From: Mycobacteriales bacterium
Lineage (GTDB): Bacteria; Actinomycetota; Actinomycetes; JALYNC01
Assembly: GCA_038253225.1 (NCBI GenBank)
Contig: JBBSHH010000004.1
Span: 1-50,272, forward strand
Direction: 5' to 3'
Length of the DNA: 50,272 nt
Both the position numbers and the translations under genes were made by a program. Positions 12,923 to 44,907 of this stretch are shown one piece after another. The stretch's first letter is position 1. The number at the start of each line of letters is the position of its first letter. The notes below the pieces were generated by a model. The model searched no databases, was not told the origin of the DNA, and saw only the letters and a list, made by a program, of their open reading frames with translations.

Positions 12923-12926
<4 letters not shown>

Positions 12927-14071
12927 CGAGGCGCTCCGGCGGCCGCGAAACGGCGCGGGTCGAAGGGGGCGACGACCGGCGGGGTGTTGCCGCTGGTCAG
13001 CATCGCGGTCACCGCCTCCGCGGTGACCGGGACGAGCAGGATGCCGTTGCGGTAGTGACCGGTCGCGAGCAGCAGGCCCTCGAGGTCGGTCCGGCCGATC
13101 AGCGGGGCGTTGTCCGGCGTACCCGGACGGAGCCCGGCGGTCGACTCCACCAGCGCCAGCTCGGACAGGCCGGGCAGCAACGCCTGCGCGTCGCGGAGCA
13201 GCTCGTACACGCCCCCCACGGTCACGGTGGTGTCGAAGCCCTGCTCCTCGACGCTGGCCCCGACGACCAGCTCGCCGTCGGCACGCGGCACCAGGTAGAC
13301 GTGGCCACCGGCCACCACCCCCCGCACGGTCCGGCGCGGCCCTGCGGCGCCGCCGGGACCCGGAGCCAGCCGCAGGATCTGGCCCTTGACCGGGCGGACC
13401 GGCGGCAGCAGGCCGGGCGGGATGCCGGCCAGCGAGCCCGACCAGCAGCCGGCCGCGAGGACAACCGTGTCGGCGGCGACGGTCGAGCCGTCCGCGAGCC
13501 GGACCCCGCGGACCCGGACGGCGTCGACGACCAGCTCGACCGCCCGGGACCGGCGTACGACGACGCCCGCCCGCTCCGCGGCGGCCAGCAGCGCCGCCGC
13601 GAGCCGCCGGTTGTCGACCGAATGGTCGCCGGCGACGAACAGGCCGCCGCGCACCGACGGGGACAGCAGCGGCTCCAGCAGCCGGCAGTCCCGGCTGGTC
13701 AATAGCTCGGTCCGCAGCCCCAGCCGGGTCTGGAAGGCGTGCAGCTCGGCCAGCACAGCCCGGTCGCCGGCGTCGAGGGCGACCGCGAGCGTGCCCTCGG
13801 TGCGGTAGCCCACCGTCACGCCGGCCGCCGCCTCGAGTTCGGCCACGAACGTCGGGTAGCGGGCGGCGGAGGCGAGGTTCAGCGCGAGCAGCCGCTCCTC
13901 GCCGTAGTGCACCTCGGTGACCGGCGCCAGCATGCCGGCGGCCGCGTGCGAGGCCCCGCCCGTCGGCGTCGGGTCCAGGACCGCAACGGTGAGGCCGGCG
14001 GCGGCGGCCCGCCAGCCGACCGCCAGCCCGATGACGCCGGCGCCGACGACGACGACGTCGGGGGTGTCCAC
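12923..14071 (-). CDS. thiO: Glycine oxidase ThiO (FAD-dependent)
   Basis: 382-aa ORF with an FAD-binding GxGxxG motif (VVVVGAGVIGLAVG). Its position in a thiO-thiS-thiG operon behind a TPP riboswitch supports the call. Confidence 0.9.
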
Positions 14072-14080
14072 CGGGTGCCT

Positions 14081-14176
14081 CCGCTCCCTGCGCCGGCATT
14101 ACCCGGATCAGGTCTGGACGGTCGGGGGCTCGCAGCCCACCCTCTCAGCCTGGTCCGCACCAGGCTCCCGTGCTCG
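14081..14176 (-). promoter_or_regulatory. TPP (THI-box) riboswitch controlling thiO-thiS-thiG
   Basis: The minus strand reads ACGGGAGCCUGGUGCGGACCAGGCUGAGAGGGUGGGCUGCGAGCCCCCGACCGUCCAGACCUGAUCCGGGUAAUGCCGGCGCAGGGAGCGG. It contains the conserved CUGAGA, ACCUGAUCCGGGUAAUGCCGGCG and CAGGGA elements of the TPP aptamer. It ends directly at the GGAGG Shine-Dalgarno of thiO. Confidence 0.9.
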
Positions 14177-30160: not shown

Positions 30161-30846
30161 TACCGGCCCTGCGGCGTTGGTCCGGTCAGGGCGACCGGCT
30201 CCCGGCCGTCGACGGTGCCGTGCGCGGCGACCACGGCGAATCTGGCGAAGAGCTCCTCGGCGTACCAGCGCTCCTCGGTGGTACGCCGGACCGCGACCTG
30301 ATGCGCCGGCCGCCGGTGCGCGAACTCGCGCAGTGCTGCGGCGCTGTCCCAGACGCTGAAGGTGCCCTGCAGCCCCACCGGCGCCTCCCCGACCCCGATG
30401 GCGAGGCGGAGCCCGTCGACCTCGTGCAGGTCGGCCGAGACCGGTGGCACCGCCCGCCAGAACGTGACCGCCTTGCGCGGCGCGATCCGGGCGCGGGTGA
30501 GCGCGGCAACCGGGCCGTCGTGGCGCACCGGCCGGGGGTCGCCGAACGGCTGCCGGCCGGACCAGCGGCCCCGGGACGCCAGCGGCCGCAGCTCGGCCCA
30601 CCACCGTTCGGTCGATATCCGACTCCACGACCGGGACACCGCGGAGTCATCGAAGCCGGCCGCGTCCTGCGCGCTCGCCCAGGTGGCCAGCAGGCCCCAG
30701 CGTCGAGGAGTGACGTCGCGGACGGTGAACGTTTCGCCGTCCCCGGTGCCGAGCAGCTTGGCGAACCGCAACCCGGGCAAGGCGCGCAGTCGAGCCCGGT
30801 CCCGCGCCATCCGCAGCACCGCGGTGCCGACATGCCGGCCGGGCAC
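30160..30846 (-). CDS. CrtA-like (spheroidene monooxygenase family) protein, carotenoid 2-hydroxylase/ketolase candidate
   Basis: 228-aa ORF from the first canonical start (GTG). It resembles CrtA as I recall it (GLRFAKLLGTGDGETF, WGLLATW, LRPLASRGRWSGRQPF). The true N-terminus probably lies further upstream (see findings). Confidence 0.6.
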   Translation of the reverse strand: MPGRHVGTAVLRMARDRARLRALPGLRFAKLLGTGDGETFTVRDVTPRRWGLLATWASAQDAAGFDDSAVSRSWSRISTERWWAELRPLASRGRWSGRQPFGDPRPVRHDGPVAALTRARIAPRKAVTFWRAVPPVSADLHEVDGLRLAIGVGEAPVGLQGTFSVWDSAAALREFAHRRPAHQVAVRRTTEERWYAEELFARFAVVAAHGTVDGREPVALTGPTPQGR

Positions 30847-30905: not shown

Positions 30906-31154
30906 TCAGGGCCGGCCCGACCCGGAGGGGGAGGCGGTGGGGGCACCCTTGCCGTACTGCCGGTCGGCATCCTGCTCACCCTGGGCGGCGGTGTCGTCCC
31001 CCACGGTGGTGGTCGGGCCGGGCTCGGAGACCACCCCGTTGCGGGTGACGCTGTCCCCGTTTCCGCCGTTGGCGGCGCAGCCGGCCGCGGCGAGCGGAAG
31101 CAACGTGGCGGCGATGGCGGCGGCGAGGGCGCGAACCGGCGGGCGTGGCGTCAT
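30906..31154 (-). CDS. Small lipoprotein
   Basis: The internal ATG at 31154 gives MTPRPPVRALAAAIAATLLPLAAAGCAANGG, a signal peptide plus lipobox, followed by a low-complexity mature part. It is the first gene of the minus-strand operon. Confidence 0.55.
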   Translation of the reverse strand: MTPRPPVRALAAAIAATLLPLAAAGCAANGGNGDSVTRNGVVSEPGPTTTVGDDTAAQGEQDADRQYGKGAPTASPSGSGRP

Positions 31155-31328
31155 GGCCCCATGCATACCCGATGCCGGCCCTTCGATCAGCGACCGGCCC
31201 GCCGGCGGGCGCAGCGGCTGGCGGTCGCCGGTCACCGGTCACGCCGCCGCGGGCTCGGTGCCGAAGCGACAGCCGTCCCCAGCCGACGTTGACGGACCGT
31301 CCGTACCGGGGTGTACGCTTCCCATCGT

Positions 31329-31344
31329 TCGAACATATGTTCGA
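31329..31344. promoter_or_regulatory. LexA (SOS) box, perfect palindrome TCGAACATATGTTCGA
   Basis: It matches the actinobacterial LexA consensus TCGAAC-N4-GTTCGA exactly. It lies 9 nt downstream of a possible promoter (TTGACG at 31289-31294, 19-nt spacer, TACGCT at 31314-31319), in the divergent region upstream of the DUF6504 gene. Confidence 0.8.
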
Positions 31345-31570
31345 TCAGCCCGCGGCCGCCGCCCTCGCGGACGGTGCCGTAGGCAACCGGCTTCCCGGCC
31401 GGGCCGGCGGACCTCGACCCCTGCCGGGCCGGCCGGGATTCCGGCGCCGGTCCGGGTGGCACGTGGGGAAGCGTCTCACCCGGACCGGCGTCCGTCGCCG
31501 CCTTCCCCCGGCGACTCCGCCGCGGTCTCGACCCGAGGCTGCGGCCCGGAGCGAGCGGGGGGAGCGGCCC

Positions 31571-32005
31571 ATGACACGGCGATACGCCGACGCGGTCGAG
31601 GTGCAGCGGCGGGACGACGCGCCGGCCCAGTTCCTCTGGCGGCGCCGGCTCTACGTCGTGCGGGCGGTGCTCGCCCACTGGTTCGAGGCGGGCGGATGGT
31701 GGCGCGGCGTCGCGGCGGCCTCGGTGTTCGGAGAGAGCACAGCGCCGCCGGCCACCGCCGACCTCGTCCTCGCCCCGATCCCGCCAGCGCCGATGTGGGG
31801 GCAGCGGGCGTGGGGAGAGCCGGCCCCGGACGTCGGTGTCGCGGTCGGGTCCGCTGCCGTCGAGGACCGCGAGCGGGAGTACTGGCGGGTGGAGGCCGGC
31901 ACCGGGCAGGCGGCCGGCACCGGGCAGGCGGCCGGCACCGGGGTCTACGACCTGTGCTTCCACTGGTCCGTCGGCGGTTGGACCGTCGTCCGCGCGATCG
32001 ACTGA
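31571..32005 (+). CDS. DUF6504-like small protein
   Basis: 144 codons from the ATG at 31571, with GGGGGAG 7 nt upstream. The N-terminal motif is AQFLWRRRLYVVRAVLAHW and the C-terminal motif is YWRVEAG...GVYDLCFHWSVGGWTVVRAID. The family name is from memory of similar annotated neighbours of SAV_6107-type HEPN genes. Confidence 0.65.
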   Translation: MTRRYADAVEVQRRDDAPAQFLWRRRLYVVRAVLAHWFEAGGWWRGVAAASVFGESTAPPATADLVLAPIPPAPMWGQRAWGEPAPDVGVAVGSAAVEDREREYWRVEAGTGQAAGTGQAAGTGVYDLCFHWSVGGWTVVRAID

Positions 32006-32014
32006 GGAGAAGTC

Positions 32015-32485
32015 ATGACTCGGCCGATGCTGACCCGGCCCGCGCCCACCGGGGCGATGCCGGCCCGGCCCCGCCGCCCCGCCGCGGCCGCCGGTGCGCT
32101 GCTGGCCGCCGCCCGCCGTGGTCTGATCGAGGCCGCGGGGCTGCCGGCTCCTGGCGAGCGGTACGCCGCCGCGCACCTGGCCGCCCTGCGCACCGCCGCC
32201 GCGGTCCTCGCCGCCCGGGCCCAGCCGGAGACCGCGCCGCCCCGCCGCCGCCGGCCGACGAGCGCCTGGGTGTTGCTCACCGCGGTCGCGCCCGAGCTGG
32301 GGGAGTGGGCCGCGTTCTTCGCCGCCGGCGCGGCCAAGCGGGCGGCCGCCGAGGCGGGGCTGACCGGGGTGGTCACGACCCGGGAGGCCGACGACCTGGT
32401 CCGCGACGTCGAGACGTTTCTCGCCGTCGTCGACACCACGCTCGGGCTGCCCCACCAGCCGGTCCTGACCGGCCGTGCCGGCTGA
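32015..32485 (+). CDS. HEPN domain protein (SAV_6107-like family)
   Basis: 156-aa ORF with GAGGAGA 4 nt upstream of the ATG. It is all-helical and Ala-rich, with an Rx4H motif (R49-YAAA-H54) and a conserved-looking tail (VAPELGEWAAFFAAGAAKRAAAEAG...TREADDLVRDVETFL). Confidence 0.65.
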   Translation: MTRPMLTRPAPTGAMPARPRRPAAAAGALLAAARRGLIEAAGLPAPGERYAAAHLAALRTAAAVLAARAQPETAPPRRRRPTSAWVLLTAVAPELGEWAAFFAAGAAKRAAAEAGLTGVVTTREADDLVRDVETFLAVVDTTLGLPHQPVLTGRAG

Positions 32486-32487
32486 CT

Positions 32488-35400
32488 ATGTCCGACCCCT
32501 TCGTTCACCTCCACGTGGCGTCCGGCTACTCGCTGCGCTACGGCGCCTCCCATCCGCAGGTGCTTGTCCAGCGGGCCGCGGAGCACGGGATGGACACGCT
32601 GGCCCTGACCGACCGGGGCGGTGTGTACGGCGCTGTGAAGTTCGTCCAGGCGTGCTCCACGGCCGGGATCCGGCCGGTGCTCGGTGTCGATCTCGCCGTC
32701 GCCCCGCTCGAGCTCGACGCGCGCCGGTCGACCCCGAGCCGTGGCCCCGGCACCCGCCAGCCGGTTCGGGGCGGTGCTTTCGTCGACCTCGCCTCGGCCC
32801 GGGTGACGGTGCTCGCCCGCGACGTGCGGGGCTGGGCGTCGGTGTGCCGGCTGGTCAGCGCCACCCACCTCACCGGCGAGCGCGGCACGCCGGTGAGCTC
32901 GCTGGACCTCCTCGCCGCGCACGCGGCCGGTGTGTTCGTGCTGCTCGGCCCGGGGTCGGAGGTCGGCCGGGCGCTGGCGGCGCGCCGGCTCGACCTGGCG
33001 CGGGCCCACCTCGACCGCTGGCGCGCCGTCCTCGGTGACGACGTCCTGCTCGAGGTCGTCCATCATCGCGGCGCCGGTGACGCCACCCGGGCGGCCCGGA
33101 TGCTGGGACTGGCCGCGGCCGCCGGGGTCGGGGCGGTGCTCACCAACGCGGTGCGCTACGCCGACCGGGCCGACGCGCCGACCGCCGATGTCCTCGACGC
33201 CGCCCGCCGGCTCGTCGTCCTCGACCCGCGCCACGTCGACCGGACGACGGCGGAGGGTGCCTTGAAGTCCGGCAAGGAGATGGCCGAGGTCGCCGACGAG
33301 GTCGCGACGATGGCCGGCACCGGACCGGCCGGCCGGCGGGAGCTGCTGGCCCGGACCCGGCGCGTCGCCGAGCAGTGCGCGCTGCCGCGCGGCACCGGCG
33401 GGCTCGGCATCGGTGAGATCCACTTCCCCGAGCTCGAGGTGACCGGCGGAGCCGGGTCGCTGGTCGGGTCGGCGGCCGCGGACGCCGTCCTGCGGGAACG
33501 CTGCACGGTCGGGTTCGGCCGGCGCGGGATGCCGGCGTCGGGCGCAGCGCTGCGTCGGCTCGACGCCGAGCTCGAGGTCATCCGTGGCCTGGGCTACCCG
33601 TCGTACTTTCTCACGGTCGGGGACGTCGTCGAGCTCATCAAGAGCATGGGGGTGCGGTGTGCCGCCCGCGGCTCCGGCGCCGGCAGCCTGGTCACCTACC
33701 TGCTGGGGATTTCCGACGTCGACCCGATCGAGCACGGGCTGGTGATGGAGCGGTTTCTCTCGCCGCTGCGGCACGCGCTGCCCGACATCGACATCGACGT
33801 CGAGTCGGCCCGCCGGACCGAGGTCTATACGGCGATCCTCGAGCGGTACGGCGGGGACCGGTGCACCTGCGTGTCGATGATGGACACCTACCGCGCCCGG
33901 CACGCCATCCGCGACGTCGGCGCCGCCCTCGGGCTGCCACCGAACGAGATCGACACCGTGGCCAAGGCGTTTCCGCACATCCGGGCGAGCCAGGTCCGGG
34001 CGGCGCTGCGCGACCTGCCGGAGCTGCAGGTCAGTGGTCTGGGCGCCGGCCGGCTCGACCTGCTGTTCCGTCTCGTCGAGCGGCTGGACGGGCTGCCCCG
34101 CCACATCGCCCTGCATCCGTGCGGGGTGCTGCTCTCCGACACCTCCCTGCTCGACCGCACCGCGGTGGAGGCGAGTTGGCTGGGCTTCCCGATGAGCCAG
34201 TTCGACAAGGACGACGTCGAGGCGCTCGGGCTGCTCAAGCTCGACGTGCTCGGCATCCGGATGCAGTCCGCGATCTCCCATGCCCTGGGGGAGGTGCGCC
34301 GGGTGGACGGCGTCGATGTCGACATCGACCGGATCTCCCGCGCCGACCCGGCGACGTTCGCGCTGGTCCAGTCCACCCGCACGCTCGGGTGCTTCCAGAT
34401 CGAGTCCCCCGGTCAGCGCGAGCTGGTCGGGAAGTTCGCGCCGGAGACGTTCGGCGACCTCATCATCGACATCTCGCTGTTCCGCCCGGGGCCGGTGAAG
34501 AGCGACATGGTCACCCCGTTCCTCGAGGCCCGACAGGGCTGGCGGCGGGTGGAGTACCTGCACCCGGACCTGCAGCCGGTCCTCGAGGAGACCTCTGGTG
34601 TGGTCGTCTTCCACGAGCAGGTGCTGCGGATGGTCTCGATCCTGACCGGTTGCACGTTGGCCGAGGCCGACGAGGTACGACGGGCGCTGGGCGATCCGCT
34701 CGGGCAGCCGGAGGTGCGGGTGTGGTTCGTCCCCGCGGCGCTGGGTCGGGGCTACCACCTCGACATGGTCGAGCGGGTGTGGGAGGTGCTCAAGGCCTTC
34801 GCCTCGTTCGGTTTCTGCAAGGCGCACGCGGCCGCGTTCGCCGTCCCGACCTACCAGTCGGCCTGGCTCAAGGCGCACCATCCGGCGGCGTTCCTCGCCG
34901 GCGTGCTGACCCACGACCCCGGCATGTATCCCAAGCGGCTGATCCTCGACGACGCGCGGCAGTTCGGTATCGCCGTCCTGTCGCTCGACGTCAACCGGTC
35001 CGACGCCGAGTACCGGGTCGAGCGGGTCGGGATCTTCGACGAGCCGCCGCCCGCGATCCTCGACGCCCCCCCACGGGACCGGCCGGCGAACGGCCCGGAC
35101 GCCCGCCGGTACGGCATCCGGCTCGGCCTGGCCGAGGTCAAGGGCAGCACCGACGCGGAGGTGGCCCGGATCATGGCCGGGCGGCCCTATGCCTCGCTGG
35201 CCGACTTCTGGCACCGGGCCGCGGTCTCCCGCCCGATCGCCGAACGGCTCGTCGTGGCCGGCGGCTTCGACGAGATCTACGGTCTGGGCTCGGCCGTGCC
35301 GGTTCGCCGGCGCGGCCAGGTCACCCGCCGCGACCTGCTGCTCCAGGTCGCCGAGCTCGACGCCTGGACCCGGTCCCGCGCGCGGCCGGGACGCCGGGCC

Positions 35401-36210
35401 GCAGCGGGGCAGCGCCCGGGCGCGAACCAGCCGGCCGACGTCCGCACTCTTGCCGCGCGCCAGTCCCAGGCGGCTCGGCCGGTCCAGCCGGTCGACGTCC
35501 AGCTCACCCTCGACCTCGGCGACACCCCGGCCGAGACCCGTCCGTCCGGGCTGCCGGAGATGACCGACGCGGAACGGGTCAGGGCCGAGCTCGACGTCCT
35601 CGGGCTCGACGCCAGCCGGCACGTCATGGACTTCTACGCGCGGTTCCTCTCCGCCGTCGGCATCACCCGGGCGCGCGACCTGGTCCGGTGCCGCAGCCGG
35701 TCCGACGTCCTGGTCGCCGGGGTCAAGGTGGCCACCCAGACACCGCCGATCCGTTCCGGTCGGCGGGTCGTCTTCGTCACGCTCGACGACGCCACCGGCC
35801 CGCTGGACGCGACGTTCTTCGAAGACGCGCAGAGCGGGTACGCCGCGACCCTGTTCCATTCCTGGCTGCTCGTCATCCGCGGCACGATCCGTCGCACCGG
35901 ACCGCGCGGAGTCTCGATGCGGGCCAGCGGCTGCTGGGAGCTCCCCCGGCTGCGGGCGGAGTGGGAGACCGGCGGCCTGCCCGCGGTGTGGACGGCCATG
36001 ACGGCGCCCCCGATCCGGAGCGAGCTCGCGCTGCACGGCGCGGCGGAGAGCCGCTCCACCCGTCCGGTGATGGCCGACCCGCCGCCCGCAGCGCTGGTCT
36101 ATCCGAGCGGGTTCGCGCTCTCGCCGTACGCCGACATCACGCCGGCCGGGGCCGGCAGCGCGCCCCCGCGCCGGCTCTGGCACGCCAGCCCGGGCAGTGC
36201 CGGTGGCTAG
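32488..36210 (+). CDS. dnaE2: C-family DNA polymerase (Pol III alpha homolog), DnaE2-like / error-prone type with degenerate PHP domain
   Basis: 1240 codons from the ATG at 32488, 2 nt after the HEPN stop. The PHP N-terminus reads FVHLHVASGYSLRYGAS...LALTDRGGVYGAVKF. The catalytic palm motifs are intact (LPDIDIDVES, SQFDKDDVEALGLLKLDVLG). An OB-fold is present (VLVAGVKVATQTPPIRSGRRVVFVTLDDATGPLDATFF). There is no long tau-binding C-terminal domain. The subclass (dnaE2 versus a separate paralog) is uncertain. Confidence 0.85.
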   Translation: MSDPFVHLHVASGYSLRYGASHPQVLVQRAAEHGMDTLALTDRGGVYGAVKFVQACSTAGIRPVLGVDLAVAPLELDARRSTPSRGPGTRQPVRGGAFVDLASARVTVLARDVRGWASVCRLVSATHLTGERGTPVSSLDLLAAHAAGVFVLLGPGSEVGRALAARRLDLARAHLDRWRAVLGDDVLLEVVHHRGAGDATRAARMLGLAAAAGVGAVLTNAVRYADRADAPTADVLDAARRLVVLDPRHVDRTTAEGALKSGKEMAEVADEVATMAGTGPAGRRELLARTRRVAEQCALPRGTGGLGIGEIHFPELEVTGGAGSLVGSAAADAVLRERCTVGFGRRGMPASGAALRRLDAELEVIRGLGYPSYFLTVGDVVELIKSMGVRCAARGSGAGSLVTYLLGISDVDPIEHGLVMERFLSPLRHALPDIDIDVESARRTEVYTAILERYGGDRCTCVSMMDTYRARHAIRDVGAALGLPPNEIDTVAKAFPHIRASQVRAALRDLPELQVSGLGAGRLDLLFRLVERLDGLPRHIALHPCGVLLSDTSLLDRTAVEASWLGFPMSQFDKDDVEALGLLKLDVLGIRMQSAISHALGEVRRVDGVDVDIDRISRADPATFALVQSTRTLGCFQIESPGQRELVGKFAPETFGDLIIDISLFRPGPVKSDMVTPFLEARQGWRRVEYLHPDLQPVLEETSGVVVFHEQVLRMVSILTGCTLAEADEVRRALGDPLGQPEVRVWFVPAALGRGYHLDMVERVWEVLKAFASFGFCKAHAAAFAVPTYQSAWLKAHHPAAFLAGVLTHDPGMYPKRLILDDARQFGIAVLSLDVNRSDAEYRVERVGIFDEPPPAILDAPPRDRPANGPDARRYGIRLGLAEVKGSTDAEVARIMAGRPYASLADFWHRAAVSRPIAERLVVAGGFDEIYGLGSAVPVRRRGQVTRRDLLLQVAELDAWTRSRARPGRRAAAGQRPGANQPADVRTLAARQSQAARPVQPVDVQLTLDLGDTPAETRPSGLPEMTDAERVRAELDVLGLDASRHVMDFYARFLSAVGITRARDLVRCRSRSDVLVAGVKVATQTPPIRSGRRVVFVTLDDATGPLDATFFEDAQSGYAATLFHSWLLVIRGTIRRTGPRGVSMRASGCWELPRLRAEWETGGLPAVWTAMTAPPIRSELALHGAAESRSTRPVMADPPPAALVYPSGFALSPYADITPAGAGSAPPRRLWHASPGSAGG

Positions 36211-36315
36211 CGGCGCCGCCGCGGCGCGGCCGCCGTCACTAGGCTGCCGGTGCCGGCGGCCCGGGCCGGCCCACACCGCCCGCACCCGCGTTCACGCCGC
36301 CCGAGGAGGACAGTG

Positions 36316-37080
36316 GTGGACCGCCTGCGGTCCCGCACCTCGGTGCGAACCGCCGTCGTCTGGGAGGTGCTCCGCGCCGCGCTGGCCGAGCAGTTTCCCG
36401 GCTCCGACCCGGCGGCCCCGGCGCCGCTCGACATCCTCGACGCGGGCGGTGGCAGCGGCGGCTTCGCCGTCCCGCTCGCCCAGCTCGACCACCGGGTCAC
36501 CGTCGTCGACCCGAGCCCCGACTCGCTCGCCGCCCTGCGGCGTCGCGCCGCCGAGGCCGGCGTCCGGACGCCGGTGCGGGCGGTGCAGGGCGACTTCGCC
36601 AACCTGCACGTGGTGGTGCCGGCCGCCAGCTACGACGTGGTGCTCTGTCACAGCGTGTTCGAGGTCGTCGAGGACCCCGCGGCGGCGATGGCGGCCGTCA
36701 CGGCTGCGCTACGGCCGGGTGGACTGGTCAGCATCCTGGCCGCGAACCGGACCGCCGCCGTGGTCGGCCGAGCGGTCGCCGGGCACTTCGCGGACGCCCG
36801 TCGCATCCTCACCGACCCCACCGGGCGGTGGGGTGACGGTGACGCGTTGGTGCGCCGGTTCACCGTCGCCGAGGTCGCCGGGCTCGCCGCCGCCGCCGGT
36901 TTGGTGGTCGGCCCGGTCCACGGCATCCGGGTGTTCACCGATCTCGTCCCGGGCGGCCTGCTCGACGCCGACCCGGAGGCCGCCGCGGCGCTGCTGGGTC
37001 TCGAGCACGCCGTCACCGGTCGGTCGGAGTTTCTGGGGCTGGCAACCCAGCTGCACCTGCTCGCCTCGCGGCCACGGTGA
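36316..37080 (+). CDS. Class I SAM-dependent methyltransferase
   Basis: SAM-binding motif I is present (ILDAGGGSGGFAVPLA), with an acidic post-I residue (VTVVDPS). I preferred the GTG at 36316, 5 nt after AGGAGGA, over the track start at 36250. Confidence 0.75.
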   Translation: MDRLRSRTSVRTAVVWEVLRAALAEQFPGSDPAAPAPLDILDAGGGSGGFAVPLAQLDHRVTVVDPSPDSLAALRRRAAEAGVRTPVRAVQGDFANLHVVVPAASYDVVLCHSVFEVVEDPAAAMAAVTAALRPGGLVSILAANRTAAVVGRAVAGHFADARRILTDPTGRWGDGDALVRRFTVAEVAGLAAAAGLVVGPVHGIRVFTDLVPGGLLDADPEAAAALLGLEHAVTGRSEFLGLATQLHLLASRPR

Positions 37081-37083
37081 CCG

Positions 37084-38358
37084 GTGAGCCGGGGCCAGCT
37101 TCGCCCGACCGGTCGCCCGACCGGACCGCCGGGCGACGACACCGGCTGCTACGTGCTGCATGTCGACATGGACGCCTTCTACGCCAGCGTCGAGCTGCGG
37201 TCCCGTCCGGAGCTGCGCGGCCGGCCGGTGATCGTGGGCGGGAGCGGGACCCGGGGCGTGGTGCTCTCGGCGACGTACGAGGCGCGGGCCTTCGGGGTCC
37301 ACAGCGCGATGCCGATGATGCGGGCGCGGCGGATGTGCCCGACTGCCATCGTGCTGCCGCCCCAGTTCGACCGCTACCAGCAGGCCTCGGCGGGCGTCAT
37401 GGAGGTGTTCCGGTCGGTGACGCCGCTGGTCGAACCGATCGCGCTCGACGAGGCGTTCCTCGATGTGCGTGGCGCCCGGCGGCGGCTGGGCGGTCCGGCG
37501 CAGATCGGGGAGTGGGTCCGGGCCCGCATCGCCGACGAGCAGGAGATCACCTGCTCGGTCGGGGTGGCGGCGACGAAGTTCGTCGCGAAGCTGGCGAGCA
37601 CCCGGTGCAAGCCGGACGGCCTGCTGGTCGTCCCGCGCACCGGCGTGGTGGCCTTCTTGCACCCGCTGCCCGTCGGCGCGCTCTGGGGAGTCGGTGAACG
37701 TACCGAGGAGTCGCTGGTCCGGCTCGGGCTGCGGACCGTCGGGGACATCGCGCATACGCCGCTGCGAACCCTGCAGCGGGTGGTCGGGCCGGCCGTCGGG
37801 GAGCACCTCTACGGGTTGGCCTGGGGTCGGGACGAGCGGCGGGTCGTGCCGCACGAACCGGAGAAGAGCATCGGTGCGGAGGAGACGTTCGGCCGCGACG
37901 TCGACGACCCGGCCGTGATCCACCGCGAGCTGCTGCGGCTCAGCGAACGGACGGCCGCGCGGCTGCGGGCGGCCGGGCAGGTCGGCCGCACGGTCAGCAT
38001 CAAGGTCCGGTTCGCCGATTTCACCACGATCACCCGGGCCCGCAGCCTCACCGACGCGACCGACGTCGGTCGCGAGATCTACACGGTCGCGCGATCCCTG
38101 TTCGACGCCCTCGGTCTGCAGCGGGCCCGGCTCCGACTGGTCGGCGTCCGGGTGGAGGGGCTGCGACCGGTGGCCACCACCCCCCGCCAGCTGCTGCTCG
38201 ACGAGCGGCCGCAGGGCTGGCGGGAGGCCGAGCTGGCGGTCGACCGAGCCAGCCGGCGCTTCGGCGCGGGGACGGTCCGACCCGCCGCCCTGGTGCGGTT
38301 CGACGACGACGACGACGCCGCCCCGCCGATGCCCCCCGGACCGCTGCGTCCCGACTGA
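37084..38358 (+). CDS. dinB: DNA polymerase IV (Y-family)
   Basis: 424-aa ORF whose GTG lies 3 nt after the methyltransferase stop. DinB motifs are present (LHVDMDAFYASVE, SATYEARAFGVHSAMP, LDEAFLDV, SVGVAATKFVAKLAS). Confidence 0.9.
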   Translation: MSRGQLRPTGRPTGPPGDDTGCYVLHVDMDAFYASVELRSRPELRGRPVIVGGSGTRGVVLSATYEARAFGVHSAMPMMRARRMCPTAIVLPPQFDRYQQASAGVMEVFRSVTPLVEPIALDEAFLDVRGARRRLGGPAQIGEWVRARIADEQEITCSVGVAATKFVAKLASTRCKPDGLLVVPRTGVVAFLHPLPVGALWGVGERTEESLVRLGLRTVGDIAHTPLRTLQRVVGPAVGEHLYGLAWGRDERRVVPHEPEKSIGAEETFGRDVDDPAVIHRELLRLSERTAARLRAAGQVGRTVSIKVRFADFTTITRARSLTDATDVGREIYTVARSLFDALGLQRARLRLVGVRVEGLRPVATTPRQLLLDERPQGWREAELAVDRASRRFGAGTVRPAALVRFDDDDDAAPPMPPGPLRPD

Positions 38359-38617
38359 TCGTCACGAGGACCCGGCCACGCCCGCTCGCCGACCACGCCC
38401 ACCCTCGCCCGCCCTCGCGCATCGGCCTCGGTGCCTCCGCAGGTTCGCTTTCGGCCCGGTCGGGGAAAGTCGAAACCACCCAGAACCCAGTCCGCCTTTC
38501 GCACTCGCCCGACCCCTCGTATCCTCGAAGGCCTACAACCGTTCGTCGTGGCCCGGCGAATGGGTGTGGTCCGCGTCCGGTCGGAGTGCGGAGGGACCGT
38601 CCCTCGGGAGGAGCGTC

Positions 38618-39007
38618 GTGCCGCTCTCTGAGCACGAGCAGCGCCTGCTCGATCAGATCGAGCGCGCCCTCTACGCCGAGGACCCCAAGTTCGCCACCTC
38701 CGTGCGGGCAACCGACCTTCGCAGCCACTACCGGCGGCGGATCGTCCGCTCGGTCGTGCTGTTCGTGCTGGGTTTCGCCCTGCTCTTCGTCGGCGTGATC
38801 AGCAAGATCGCGCCGGTCGGTGTCGGCGGTTTCCTGGTCATGCTGTTCGCCCTGTTCTGGGGCCTCACCAGCTGGCAGCGGTTGGCGGGGAACAAGGACG
38901 CGCGCACCCCCCGACGCCGGGCCCCGGCCGTCAAGACGCCGCGGGCGTCGGTGATGTCGCGGTTGGAGGAGCGGTGGCGACGTCGCTGGGAGGAACGCGG
39001 CCGCTAG
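38618..39007 (+). CDS. DUF3040 domain membrane protein (Rv2169c-like)
   Basis: I took the GTG at 38618, with GGGAGGAG 5 nt upstream. The typical N-terminus PLSEHEQRLLDQIERALYAEDPKFA is followed by two TM helices. Confidence 0.8.
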   Translation: MPLSEHEQRLLDQIERALYAEDPKFATSVRATDLRSHYRRRIVRSVVLFVLGFALLFVGVISKIAPVGVGGFLVMLFALFWGLTSWQRLAGNKDARTPRRRAPAVKTPRASVMSRLEERWRRRWEERGR

Positions 39008-39018
39008 TCGCCGCCCGC

Positions 39019-39100
39019 TCCTGCTGGTAGCACCGGCTTGCTGGTAGCACCGCTTGCTGGCGGCACCGCTTCCCGGCAGCACCGCTTCCGGGCAGCACCG
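39019..39100. repeat. Degenerate 16-bp tandem repeat, about 5 units (CTTGCTGGTAGCACCG-like)
   Basis: The units are CTTGCTGGTAGCACCG, CTTGCTGGCGGCACCG, CTTCCCGGCAGCACCG and CTTCCGGGCAGCACCG, preceded by a partial unit. The array lies in the convergent intergenic region between the DUF3040 and transglutaminase genes. Confidence 0.7.
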
Positions 39101-44215: not shown

Positions 44216-44647
44216 GTGTTCTTGGGCACCCACACCCCCCGGCTCGACGACAAGGGCCGGCTGTTCCTGCCGGCGAAGTTCCGGGACCAGCTGGCGGAGG
44301 GCCTTGTGATCACCAAGGGGCAGGACCATTGCCTGTACCTCTGGGCCCTGCCGGAGTTCGAACGGCTGGCCGAGGCGGTGCGGACCGCCCCGGTGACCGC
44401 CAAGGCGGTGCGCGACTACAGCCGCATCTTCTTCGCGTCCGCCTCCGACGAAGTCCCGGACCGGCAGGGCCGGATCACGGTGCCCGCGGCGCTGCGGGAG
44501 TACGCCGGGCTGGGGCGCGACTGTGTGGTGACCGGCGCCGGCAACCGGGTGGAGATCTGGGACGCCGACTCATGGGCGAGCTACAGCAGCGAGCAGGAGC
44601 CCGCATTCGCCGACCTCGCCTCGGAGGTGTTGCCGGGAGTGTTCTGA
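44216..44647 (+). CDS. mraZ: Transcriptional regulator MraZ
   Basis: 143 codons from the GTG at 44216, with GAGGAGAGG upstream. The classic N-terminus [22 protein letters not shown] and the second SpoVT-AbrB repeat ([20 protein letters not shown]) are present. Confidence 0.9.
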
Positions 44648-44907
44648 CCGGCCCCTCCAGGCCGATCCCGCGCCGATACGTCGAGCGAGGTCTCCGACCG
44701 CTCCGACACGCACCTGACGCACCTTCCCCGGCGCCAGGTGCGGAGCGGGCGGGGACCTGGCCCGACGTCTCCGGACCCCTCGCCGCCATGCCGCCGAGCG
44801 TCCATCCGGGACACCACCCGCCCGGGAGCGGGGACCGCACCCCTGCCCGCGGGCCTCGCACTGCTGGAGGGCACCGCCGATTCCGCACCACCGTCCAGGG
44901 GGTCGAG

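Follow-up and report, generated by a model that had tools for sequence, protein, structure and literature searches.

A LexA-fronted operon of a Mycobacteriales bacterium with the components of a split-ImuB putative mutasome, a HEPN protein and a methyltransferase

The locus considered here raises the question of which system is encoded by an operon that places two DNA polymerases behind a LexA (SOS) box, apparently lacks ImuA' and canonical ImuB, and carries in addition a HEPN protein and a methyltransferase. It lies in contig JBBSHH010000004.1 of the assembly GCA_038253225.1 (Mycobacteriales bacterium), of which a stretch of 50,272 nucleotides (nt), referred to as the window, was analysed. 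Five genes on one strand follow each other in the order imuB-C (DUF6504), HEPN, dnaE2B, methyltransferase (MTase) and polY, with intergenic gaps of 9, 2, 105 and 3 nt. DnaE2-type mutasomes are the drivers of mutagenesis after DNA damage, in mycobacteria also of mutations that confer drug resistance, and DnaE2B variants are present in many soil and radiation-resistant actinobacteria.

Components of the putative mutasome

The series of five same-strand genes, with these gaps, had been reported in a preliminary description of the window and agrees with the coordinates and with the periodicity of GC at third codon positions, which marks as coding the DUF6504 gene (31571-32005), the HEPN gene (32015-32485) and the polymerase gene from 32488; this periodicity is absent from 31160-31570, which is therefore non-coding. 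The five family assignments made there are supported by Pfam and NCBIfam profile searches, and the pairing of a C-family and a Y-family polymerase in a LexA-fronted operon is borne out by the box and by both families. As judged from sequence comparison, the operon very likely belongs to the DnaE2B-PolY-ImuB-C-RecA putative mutasome, or "split ImuB" type, described computationally by Timinskas and Venclovas in 2019 (PMC6511836) and in Nucleic Acids Research in 2026 (PMC12926913), with published exemplars in Kineococcus radiotolerans (Krad_3213/Krad_3215 region), Janibacter indicus, Nocardioides euryhalodurans and Tessaracoccus lapidicaptus. The defining features found in the window are a polymerase of the DnaE2B clade, a standalone ImuB-C in the operon, and a Y-family polymerase that seems to be active and bears a RecA-NT motif; the published type is further characterised by genomes devoid of imuA and imuB, with RecA acting as a subunit.

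The first gene, imuB-C (31571-32005, + strand), encodes a protein of 144 amino acids (aa) that matches PF20114 with an E value of 4.5e-14. The profile of its DUF6504 family matches the published ImuB-C subunits, taken from Supplementary data file 4 of PMC12926913, with E values of 1.9e-24 to 6.6e-13, and on scanning six published standalone ImuB-C proteins, five, those of Firmicute DnaE2X systems included, pass the cutoff of PF20114; this model is also the top match, at a sub-threshold E of 0.06, of a true ImuB C-terminal domain. The NCBI label of the published Kineococcus ImuB-C is "DUF6504 family protein". By these profile comparisons, DUF6504 is the Pfam name of the standalone ImuB-C protein, that is, of the ImuB C-terminal domain encoded as a protein of its own, so that ImuB is split and not absent. 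The preliminary reading of a cassette without ImuA'/ImuB consequently holds in one part, since neither an ImuA-like nor a canonical ImuB gene turned up when the cassette and ten flanking genes were scanned, and has to be amended in the other, as DUF6504 corresponds to ImuB-C and the ImuB function appears to be divided. Nor did this profile scan reveal any gene with a RecA fold. The ImuB-C subfamily of the window has a highly conserved extra insert of ~40 aa (residues ~62-102, PIPxSPKWxQRAWGEPAPDVG), missing from the Kineococcus, Nocardioides and Tessaracoccus ImuB-C proteins and predicted to be unstructured in a low-confidence monomer model. The structure model of DUF6504, with a predicted local distance difference test score (pLDDT) of 50, is too poor for a fold search, and a search of PDB sequences with the DUF6504 profile returned chance matches only (E 0.5 or worse).

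The third gene, dnaE2B (32488-36210, + strand), encodes an error-prone-type C-family polymerase of 1240 aa with PHP, DNA_pol3_alpha, finger, HHH_6 and OB domains in Pfam; the catalytic residues D433, D435 and D586 are intact and no QxxLF clamp motif was found in the protein. Over the N-terminal ~400 aa, identity is 58% to the Nocardioides and 52% to the Tessaracoccus DnaE2B of four-component systems, against 31-32% to DnaE2X, 30% to Escherichia coli DnaE1 and 24-27% to DnaE2A, and in a neighbour-joining tree the polymerase is nested in the DnaE2B group of four-component systems. The possibility that it is the replicative DnaE1, and the cassette a housekeeping replication locus, draws on the NCBIfam DnaE1 model, whose 665 bits are nominally the best score; this value is far below the cutoff of 1002, just as the 659 bits of the error-prone DnaE2 model are below 939, and the match to Mycobacterium tuberculosis DnaE1 reaches only 347 bits, lower than those to the Thermus or E. 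coli enzymes. Together with the placement in the DnaE2B clade, the LexA box ahead of the operon and the fact that the Kineococcus genome has several dnaE genes, the ortholog Krad_3215 among them (PMC2587704), the sub-cutoff scores reduce this possibility to a practically negligible one, and DnaE1 identity was rejected, which agrees with the specialised polymerase assumed in the preliminary description. By its N-terminal sequence, the polymerase is a member of the actinobacterial DnaE2B clade, neither DnaE1 nor DnaE2A. Past the OB domain, its tail (36031-36210 of the window) contains two strongly conserved motifs, GFxxSPYADIxPAG and, at the extreme C-terminus, PR(K/R)LWH(A/S)SxGSxG, which recur in the loci L082, L084, L086 and L090-L093; they are candidate protein-interaction motifs, and in the 2026 survey (PMC12926913) the main text was not found to discuss them.

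The last gene, polY (37084-38358, + strand), encodes a DinB-like protein of 424 aa with IMS and IMS_C domains, which scores 408 bits with the NCBIfam Pol IV model NF003015 (cutoff 367). Its catalytic motifs DMDAFYASVE and LDEAF are intact, a C-terminal RecA-NT-like motif, WREAELAVDRASRRFGAGTVRPAAL, aligns with those of the published PolY partners, and QLLLD is a candidate clamp motif. As far as these motifs indicate, PolY is a catalytically intact Y-family polymerase, unlike the inactivated DinB2 of Streptomyces.

With the DnaE2B-PolY-ImuB-C-RecA systems, which are confined to actinobacteria, the window shares by direct sequence comparison the three listed components, and its layout is identical to that of the Kineococcus exemplar, including two genes outside the published component list. 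The published description omits the HEPN protein, the methyltransferase, the dual promoter and the leader RNA treated below; the Tessaracoccus system seemingly lacks the HEPN protein and the methyltransferase, and the window differs further by the ~40-aa insert of its ImuB-C. An older review listed the Kineococcus gene as a "lone imuC" (PMC3901139). The preliminary description knew of no functional account of this gene combination and regarded it as a distinct module; neither statement is supported, as DnaE2B with an active PolY and a standalone ImuB-C has been described computationally (PMC6511836, PMC12926913) and the five genes stand in an identical order in the published exemplar from Kineococcus. 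What stands is that the HEPN protein and the methyltransferase are undescribed in this setting: in the open-access literature no mention was found of a HEPN protein in connection with DnaE2 or in polymerase-system papers, nor of the membership of the HEPN protein and the methyltransferase, the lone HEPN-MTase pair of Streptomyces, the dual promoter or the leader RNA.

With the canonical ImuA'-ImuB-DnaE2 mutasome (DnaE2A; Mycobacterium, Caulobacter, Pseudomonas) the system of the window shares SOS regulation, an error-prone C-family polymerase accompanied by a Y-family protein and an ImuB-C domain, and a RecA-NT-type motif on the Y-family partner. In contrast to the canonical mutasome, it has no ImuA/ImuA', its PolY is catalytically intact and separate from ImuB-C, and its polymerase is a DnaE2B (24-27% identity to DnaE2A). 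An operon of two LexA-controlled components is also known in Streptomyces, where dnaE2-dinB2 (SCO1739/SCO1738) combines a DnaE2B-clade polymerase (47% N-terminal identity in S. alboniger) with a Y-family gene and an SOS box and is induced by ultraviolet light (UV) and mitomycin C and bound by LexA (PMC3273824; listed as a target of S. venezuelae LexA in PMC9380542). Unlike PolY of the window, Streptomyces DinB2 is catalytically dead, is linked through an ATGA overlap and comes without ImuB-C, and in Streptomyces the HEPN and methyltransferase genes remain at a site close to the dcw cluster without a LexA box. The dinB-yafN-yafO-yafP operon of E. coli is likewise a LexA-controlled translesion-polymerase operon encoding an RNase-type protein and a group-transfer enzyme; however, YafO acts as a toxin alongside its antitoxin, a pairing not apparent here, and the protein families of that operon are unrelated to those of the window.

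HEPN protein and methyltransferase across actinobacterial loci

Orthologous loci were collected by a HEPN profile scan with one genome per species; 80 loci were kept and annotated by tblastn and with the DUF6504 profile, and seven more contexts (L082, L084, L086 and L090-L093) were considered, six of them anchored on DUF6504 rather than on HEPN. The polymerase-bearing set consists of 20 loci with the window counted. The full order imuB-C, HEPN, dnaE2B, MTase, polY is present in ten of them, among which are the window, Acidothermaceae B102 and Kineococcus radiotolerans, while three are without the methyltransferase, five without dnaE, and two are incomplete or rearranged. HEPN is immediately downstream in all six DUF6504-anchored loci, being recognised in one of these by the custom profile alone (E 2.5e-55), and its junctions to the neighbouring genes measure -4 to +13 nt in five of the eight loci tabulated. 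The small genes are thus co-conserved with the polymerase, as the preliminary description would require. In the published systems of Janibacter, Kineococcus, Nocardioides and Ornithinimicrobium, the accession numbers have gaps exactly at the positions of the HEPN and methyltransferase genes, and the Kineococcus radiotolerans locus, on inspection, has the five genes in identical order followed by DUF3040 and TgpA. Variants without dnaE2B (imuB-C, HEPN, MTase, polY) are L002, L018, L032, L023 and L070, and variants without the methyltransferase are L086-L088, L092 and L066; L023 and L070 gave no DUF6504 match, yet they keep both the LexA box and the leader hairpin.

The loci of the Streptomyces type (n=68) have HEPN followed by the same methyltransferase in 67 cases, and in none of them is a DnaE, PolY, DUF6504 or LexA box found beside HEPN. 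The methyltransferase, which had been regarded as appended to the cassette, is thus not a simple addition: paired with HEPN, it persists alone at this chromosomal site in the Streptomyces-type loci. Common to all loci downstream are DUF3040, TgpA, then MoxR-type genes, and rsmH, with which the dcw cluster opens; this indicates a fixed chromosomal site and not a mobile element. Near HEPN, the Streptomyces-type loci contain no GAAC-N4-GTTC core and only degenerate sequences of the type CCGAAC-N4-GATCGA, with 1-2 mismatches; the idea that the latter, upstream of HEPN, is a decayed LexA box was unsupported, as it adjoins a different conserved palindrome. This palindrome, ACTGAC-N2-GTCAGT with flanking A/T runs, is highly conserved in the Streptomyces-type loci (L003-L080), ~120-240 nt upstream of HEPN and between it and divergent ABC-transporter/TetR genes; it is probably the TetR-family operator of these divergent genes and unrelated to LexA.

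The HEPN protein of the window (32015-32485, + strand; 156 aa) belongs to the SAV_6107 family (PF18726, E 3e-37, 127 bits), and its AlphaFold2 model is a helical bundle with a pLDDT of 87. The best fold match is the HEPN protein 2hsb (probability 1.0, template modelling score 0.63, E 0.18); the top matches are all HEPN proteins, none at a significant E value (0.18 or worse), with HEPN-MNT toxins among the weak ones. The canonical Rx4-6H site at the start of the last helix reads R123-EADDLV-R130 (R-x6-R), so that the histidine is absent, and an invariant R49-x4-H54 occurs in helix 2, away from the canonical catalytic site; this assignment of helices follows the predicted model and the general HEPN topology. 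In comparison with HEPN-MNT systems, the protein shares the Pfam family and the helical-bundle fold; unlike them, it lacks Rx4-6H at the canonical helix and an MNT partner. The qualification as an RNase-type HEPN, given in the preliminary description, is therefore doubtful. The same polar HEPN residues are conserved to at least 95% both in the polymerase-bearing and in the Streptomyces-type group; the long N-termini of some members are of low complexity and probably result from over-called starts. HEPN domains are typically RNA-binding or RNase modules, and Anantharaman et al. in 2013 placed SAV_6107 with the MNT-associated minimal HEPN clade, no context being recorded for it in that survey (PMC3710099). 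A comparison with PADLOC gave no acceptable defence assignment, as the HEPN match was marginal (E 0.0013) and the methyltransferase matched a generic domain.

The fourth gene (36316-37080, + strand) encodes a class I S-adenosylmethionine (SAM) methyltransferase (Pfam Methyltransf_11/25/12), distantly similar to CmoM/SmtA. It starts with GTG at 36313 or 36316, leaving an upstream spacer of 102-105 nt, and has a strong ribosome-binding site of its own, GAGGAGG. Similarity to the tRNA 5-carboxymethoxyuridine methyltransferase CmoM/SmtA (PDB 8joz and 4htf) extends over the full length, with the class I SAM fold and its motif I, at E ~4e-16. As the match to these entries is of 63 bits, and that to the NCBIfam CmoM model of 90 bits against a cutoff of 366, the protein falls below ortholog level and is not considered a CmoM ortholog.

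LexA box, promoter and leader RNA

The LexA box, TCGAACATATGTTCGA, is located at 31329-31344 and occurs once in the window even with three mismatches allowed (chance expectation 0.03), so that the perfect palindrome reported ahead of the cassette in the preliminary description is unique. Of the 20 orthologous polymerase-bearing loci, 18 carry a perfect copy and two a copy with a single mismatch, which argues against a chance match. In the window, the box begins 9 nt past the -10 hexamer TACGCT, and in nearly every polymerase-type locus the box is found 8-10 nt past a TAnnnT hexamer. The sequence fits the actinobacterial LexA motif tCGAAC-N4-GNNCGa derived from chromatin immunoprecipitation (PMC9380542); an operator of the form TCGAAC-N4-GTTCGA at the promoter, conserved in orthologs, is what characterises the LexA regulon at the sequence level. 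On this basis, the operon is predicted to be damage-inducible through LexA.

The promoter read from the sequence (31289-31319, + strand) consists of the hexamers TTGACG (31289-31294) and TACGCT (31314-31319), both already proposed in the preliminary description; their spacer of 19 nt is rather long, and the promoter escaped the generic sigma-70 scan. Part of it coincides with a degenerate RecA-NDp/PafBC-like motif, CGTCCGTA-N8-TACGCT (31298-31319), which matches five of the eight core positions and TAnnnT. The consensus of this motif, printed as tTGTCRgtg-8nt-TannnT in PMC5656591, is matched at seven or more of eight positions in 10 of the 20 orthologous promoters (L001, L012, L013, L023, L055, L056, L066, L086, L090 and L091), against a chance rate of ~0.0005. 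In this half of the promoters the PafBC-type motif, TGTCGGTG-N8-TACTGT, stands immediately upstream of the LexA box, which makes a dual damage control by LexA and PafBC probable for the operon in many orthologs, as far as promoter motifs can indicate. Mycobacterial genes with both LexA and PafBC motifs are known (PMC8223512).

Between the box and imuB-C lies a 5' leader of 226 nt (31345-31570, + strand), non-coding and highly structured, with a minimum free energy (MFE) of -169.8 kcal/mol and a z-score of -6.58 against shuffled sequences. It includes a hairpin (31446-31489, + strand) with an 18-bp stem and an invariant GGGGAA loop (31465-31470). In an alignment of ten loci, named A4 (among them L001, L013, L023, L056, L070, L086, L090, L092 and L093), 94% of the cells of this hairpin are paired and compensatory changes are present in 11 of the 18 pairs; the covariation is 0.486, compared with 0.204 +/- 0.032 in shuffles (reached in 0 of 500) and 0.08-0.14 with slid partners. 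The hairpin is followed by a near-invariant block, GCCTTCCCCCGG (31499-31510, + strand), which contains CTTCCCC (31502-31508) and is complementary to the hairpin loop GGGGAAG; in the MFE fold of the window the block pairs with the Shine-Dalgarno region, GGGGGGAG. The complementarity of the block, CCUUCCCCC, to both the loop and the ribosome-binding site suggests a sequestration switch, its pairing partners being deduced from complementarity, since an invariant sequence yields no covariation. No Rfam family was found in the leader at gathering or permissive thresholds, apart from spurious miRNA-like hairpin matches far below threshold, and the hairpin with its block may thus be a new cis-regulatory RNA.

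Readings of the locus and flanking genes

The most far-reaching reading, less likely than not and far less certain than the assignment to the split-ImuB type, takes the HEPN protein as a hitherto unrecognised, near-constant component of the actinobacterial ImuB-C/PolY/DnaE2B systems, in which it would either regulate the complex as a subunit or bind RNA in response to damage, perhaps together with the CmoM-like methyltransferase; expression would then be gated by a LexA operator, a PafBC-type promoter and a new structured leader able to sequester the ribosome-binding site. In the explanation preferred here for the operon as such, which follows LexA biology, DNA damage would generate RecA filaments, these would promote the self-cleavage of LexA, and the operon would then be transcribed; in many orthologs, the PafBC-type activator motif would add a second damage control, and the leader hairpin with the pairing of the block CCUUCCCCC to the ribosome-binding site may add a translational one. 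In the complex, as deduced from the published AlphaFold models (PMC12926913), ImuB-C would dock on the PHP domain of DnaE2B and link the polymerase to PolY, which would supply the contacts to the beta-clamp and to RecA, the latter taking the place of ImuA'. For the HEPN protein, a role in assisting or regulating the polymerase complex without acting as a nuclease, suggested by the missing catalytic histidine, is a serious possibility that still stops short of being probable. Several points weigh against these proposals. The four-protein complex is known from AlphaFold models alone, and these models scored well without the HEPN protein; Tessaracoccus appears to be without it, its accession numbers being consecutive; the Streptomyces HEPN-MTase loci keep the same conserved residues with no polymerase neighbours; and no fusion of HEPN with ImuB-C or with other domains was present among the top 150 of ~1,180 HEPN representatives. 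Deletion of Streptomyces dnaE2 gave no UV phenotype (PMC3273824), and the PafBC-like motif of the window itself, with its five of eight positions, is weak. Moreover, the placement of DnaE is based on ~350 N-terminal alignment columns, N-terminal reference sequences and neighbour joining, and what can be seen of imuA, imuB and a separate dnaE1 is confined to the 50 kb of the genome analysed.

The accessory role is favoured over an independent RNA-directed pair, for example tRNA-modifying or RNA-binding, formed by the HEPN protein and the methyltransferase and long resident beside the dcw cluster, around which the polymerase genes were assembled or from which they were lost or relocated in Streptomyces; the members would then be co-regulated without sharing a complex. 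This explanation is itself a real possibility, if the less favoured one, as 67 of the 68 Streptomyces-type loci keep HEPN-MTase alone at the syntenic site, the same HEPN polar residues are conserved to at least 95% in both groups of loci, the methyltransferase is related to the tRNA methyltransferase CmoM, distantly but over its full length, and HEPN domains typically act on or bind RNA (PMC3710099); in addition, the methyltransferase has its own ribosome-binding site, behind an upstream spacer that varies from 50 to 325 nt across loci. However, HEPN is kept where the methyltransferase is absent (L086-88, L092, L066), and it is tightly or even overlappingly joined to imuB-C and dnaE2B and not to the methyltransferase, which moreover, with 90 bits, remains far from the CmoM cutoff of 366. 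Since Streptomyces genomes encode DnaE2B elsewhere (PMC3273824), an action of the HEPN protein in trans is possible there. Reconstitution or modelling of the complex should include the HEPN protein, which in the loci examined is translationally coupled between ImuB-C and the polymerase, and the CmoM-like methyltransferase, which usually rides along; if the two are an unrelated resident pair, the locus is one more operon of a catalogued type.

The view taken in the preliminary description, namely an undescribed module lacking ImuB function, with two polymerases and an active HEPN RNase, agrees with the absence of ImuA' and of canonical ImuB from the cassette, with the solid HEPN family membership and with the silence of the searchable polymerase-system papers on HEPN; it is nonetheless improbable, because DUF6504 corresponds to ImuB-C, the system type is published, including loci of the exact gene order, and the canonical HEPN catalytic histidine is absent. 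Even less credit can be given to a toxin/modifier pair of HEPN and methyltransferase causing damage-induced growth arrest in the manner of HEPN-MNT or yafNOP. The E. coli dinB operon does carry a toxin-antitoxin pair, HEPN-MNT toxins are among the weak fold matches, and SAV_6107 is classed with the MNT-associated minimal HEPN clade (PMC3710099); yet the canonical HEPN site has no catalytic histidine, a 3.7-kb polymerase gene separates HEPN and methyltransferase in most loci, the PADLOC matches are marginal or generic, and the fixed chromosomal position, vertical inheritance and strong conservation are unlike those of typical toxin-antitoxin or defence genes.

Concerning the surroundings of the operon, 205 nt separate polY from a DUF3040 gene of the same orientation (38564-39007, + strand), a downstream neighbour found in every locus, those of Streptomyces among them. 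A generic promoter and terminator scan of 31100-39100 called nothing; as no terminator was detected by it between polY and DUF3040, the latter may be co-transcribed with polY. Directly upstream of the promoter, two minus-strand open reading frames (30186-30833 and 30906-31154) have no Pfam match and are uncertain as gene calls, the second starting with a lipoprotein-like signal sequence. Elsewhere in the window, a thiamine pyrophosphate (TPP) riboswitch (14083-14173, - strand; 56 bits, gathering score 54.3) is located upstream of a gene at 12923-14071 (- strand), and an mraW RNA motif (44672-44778, + strand; 61 bits) lies just past mraZ (44216-44647), where the dcw cluster begins.

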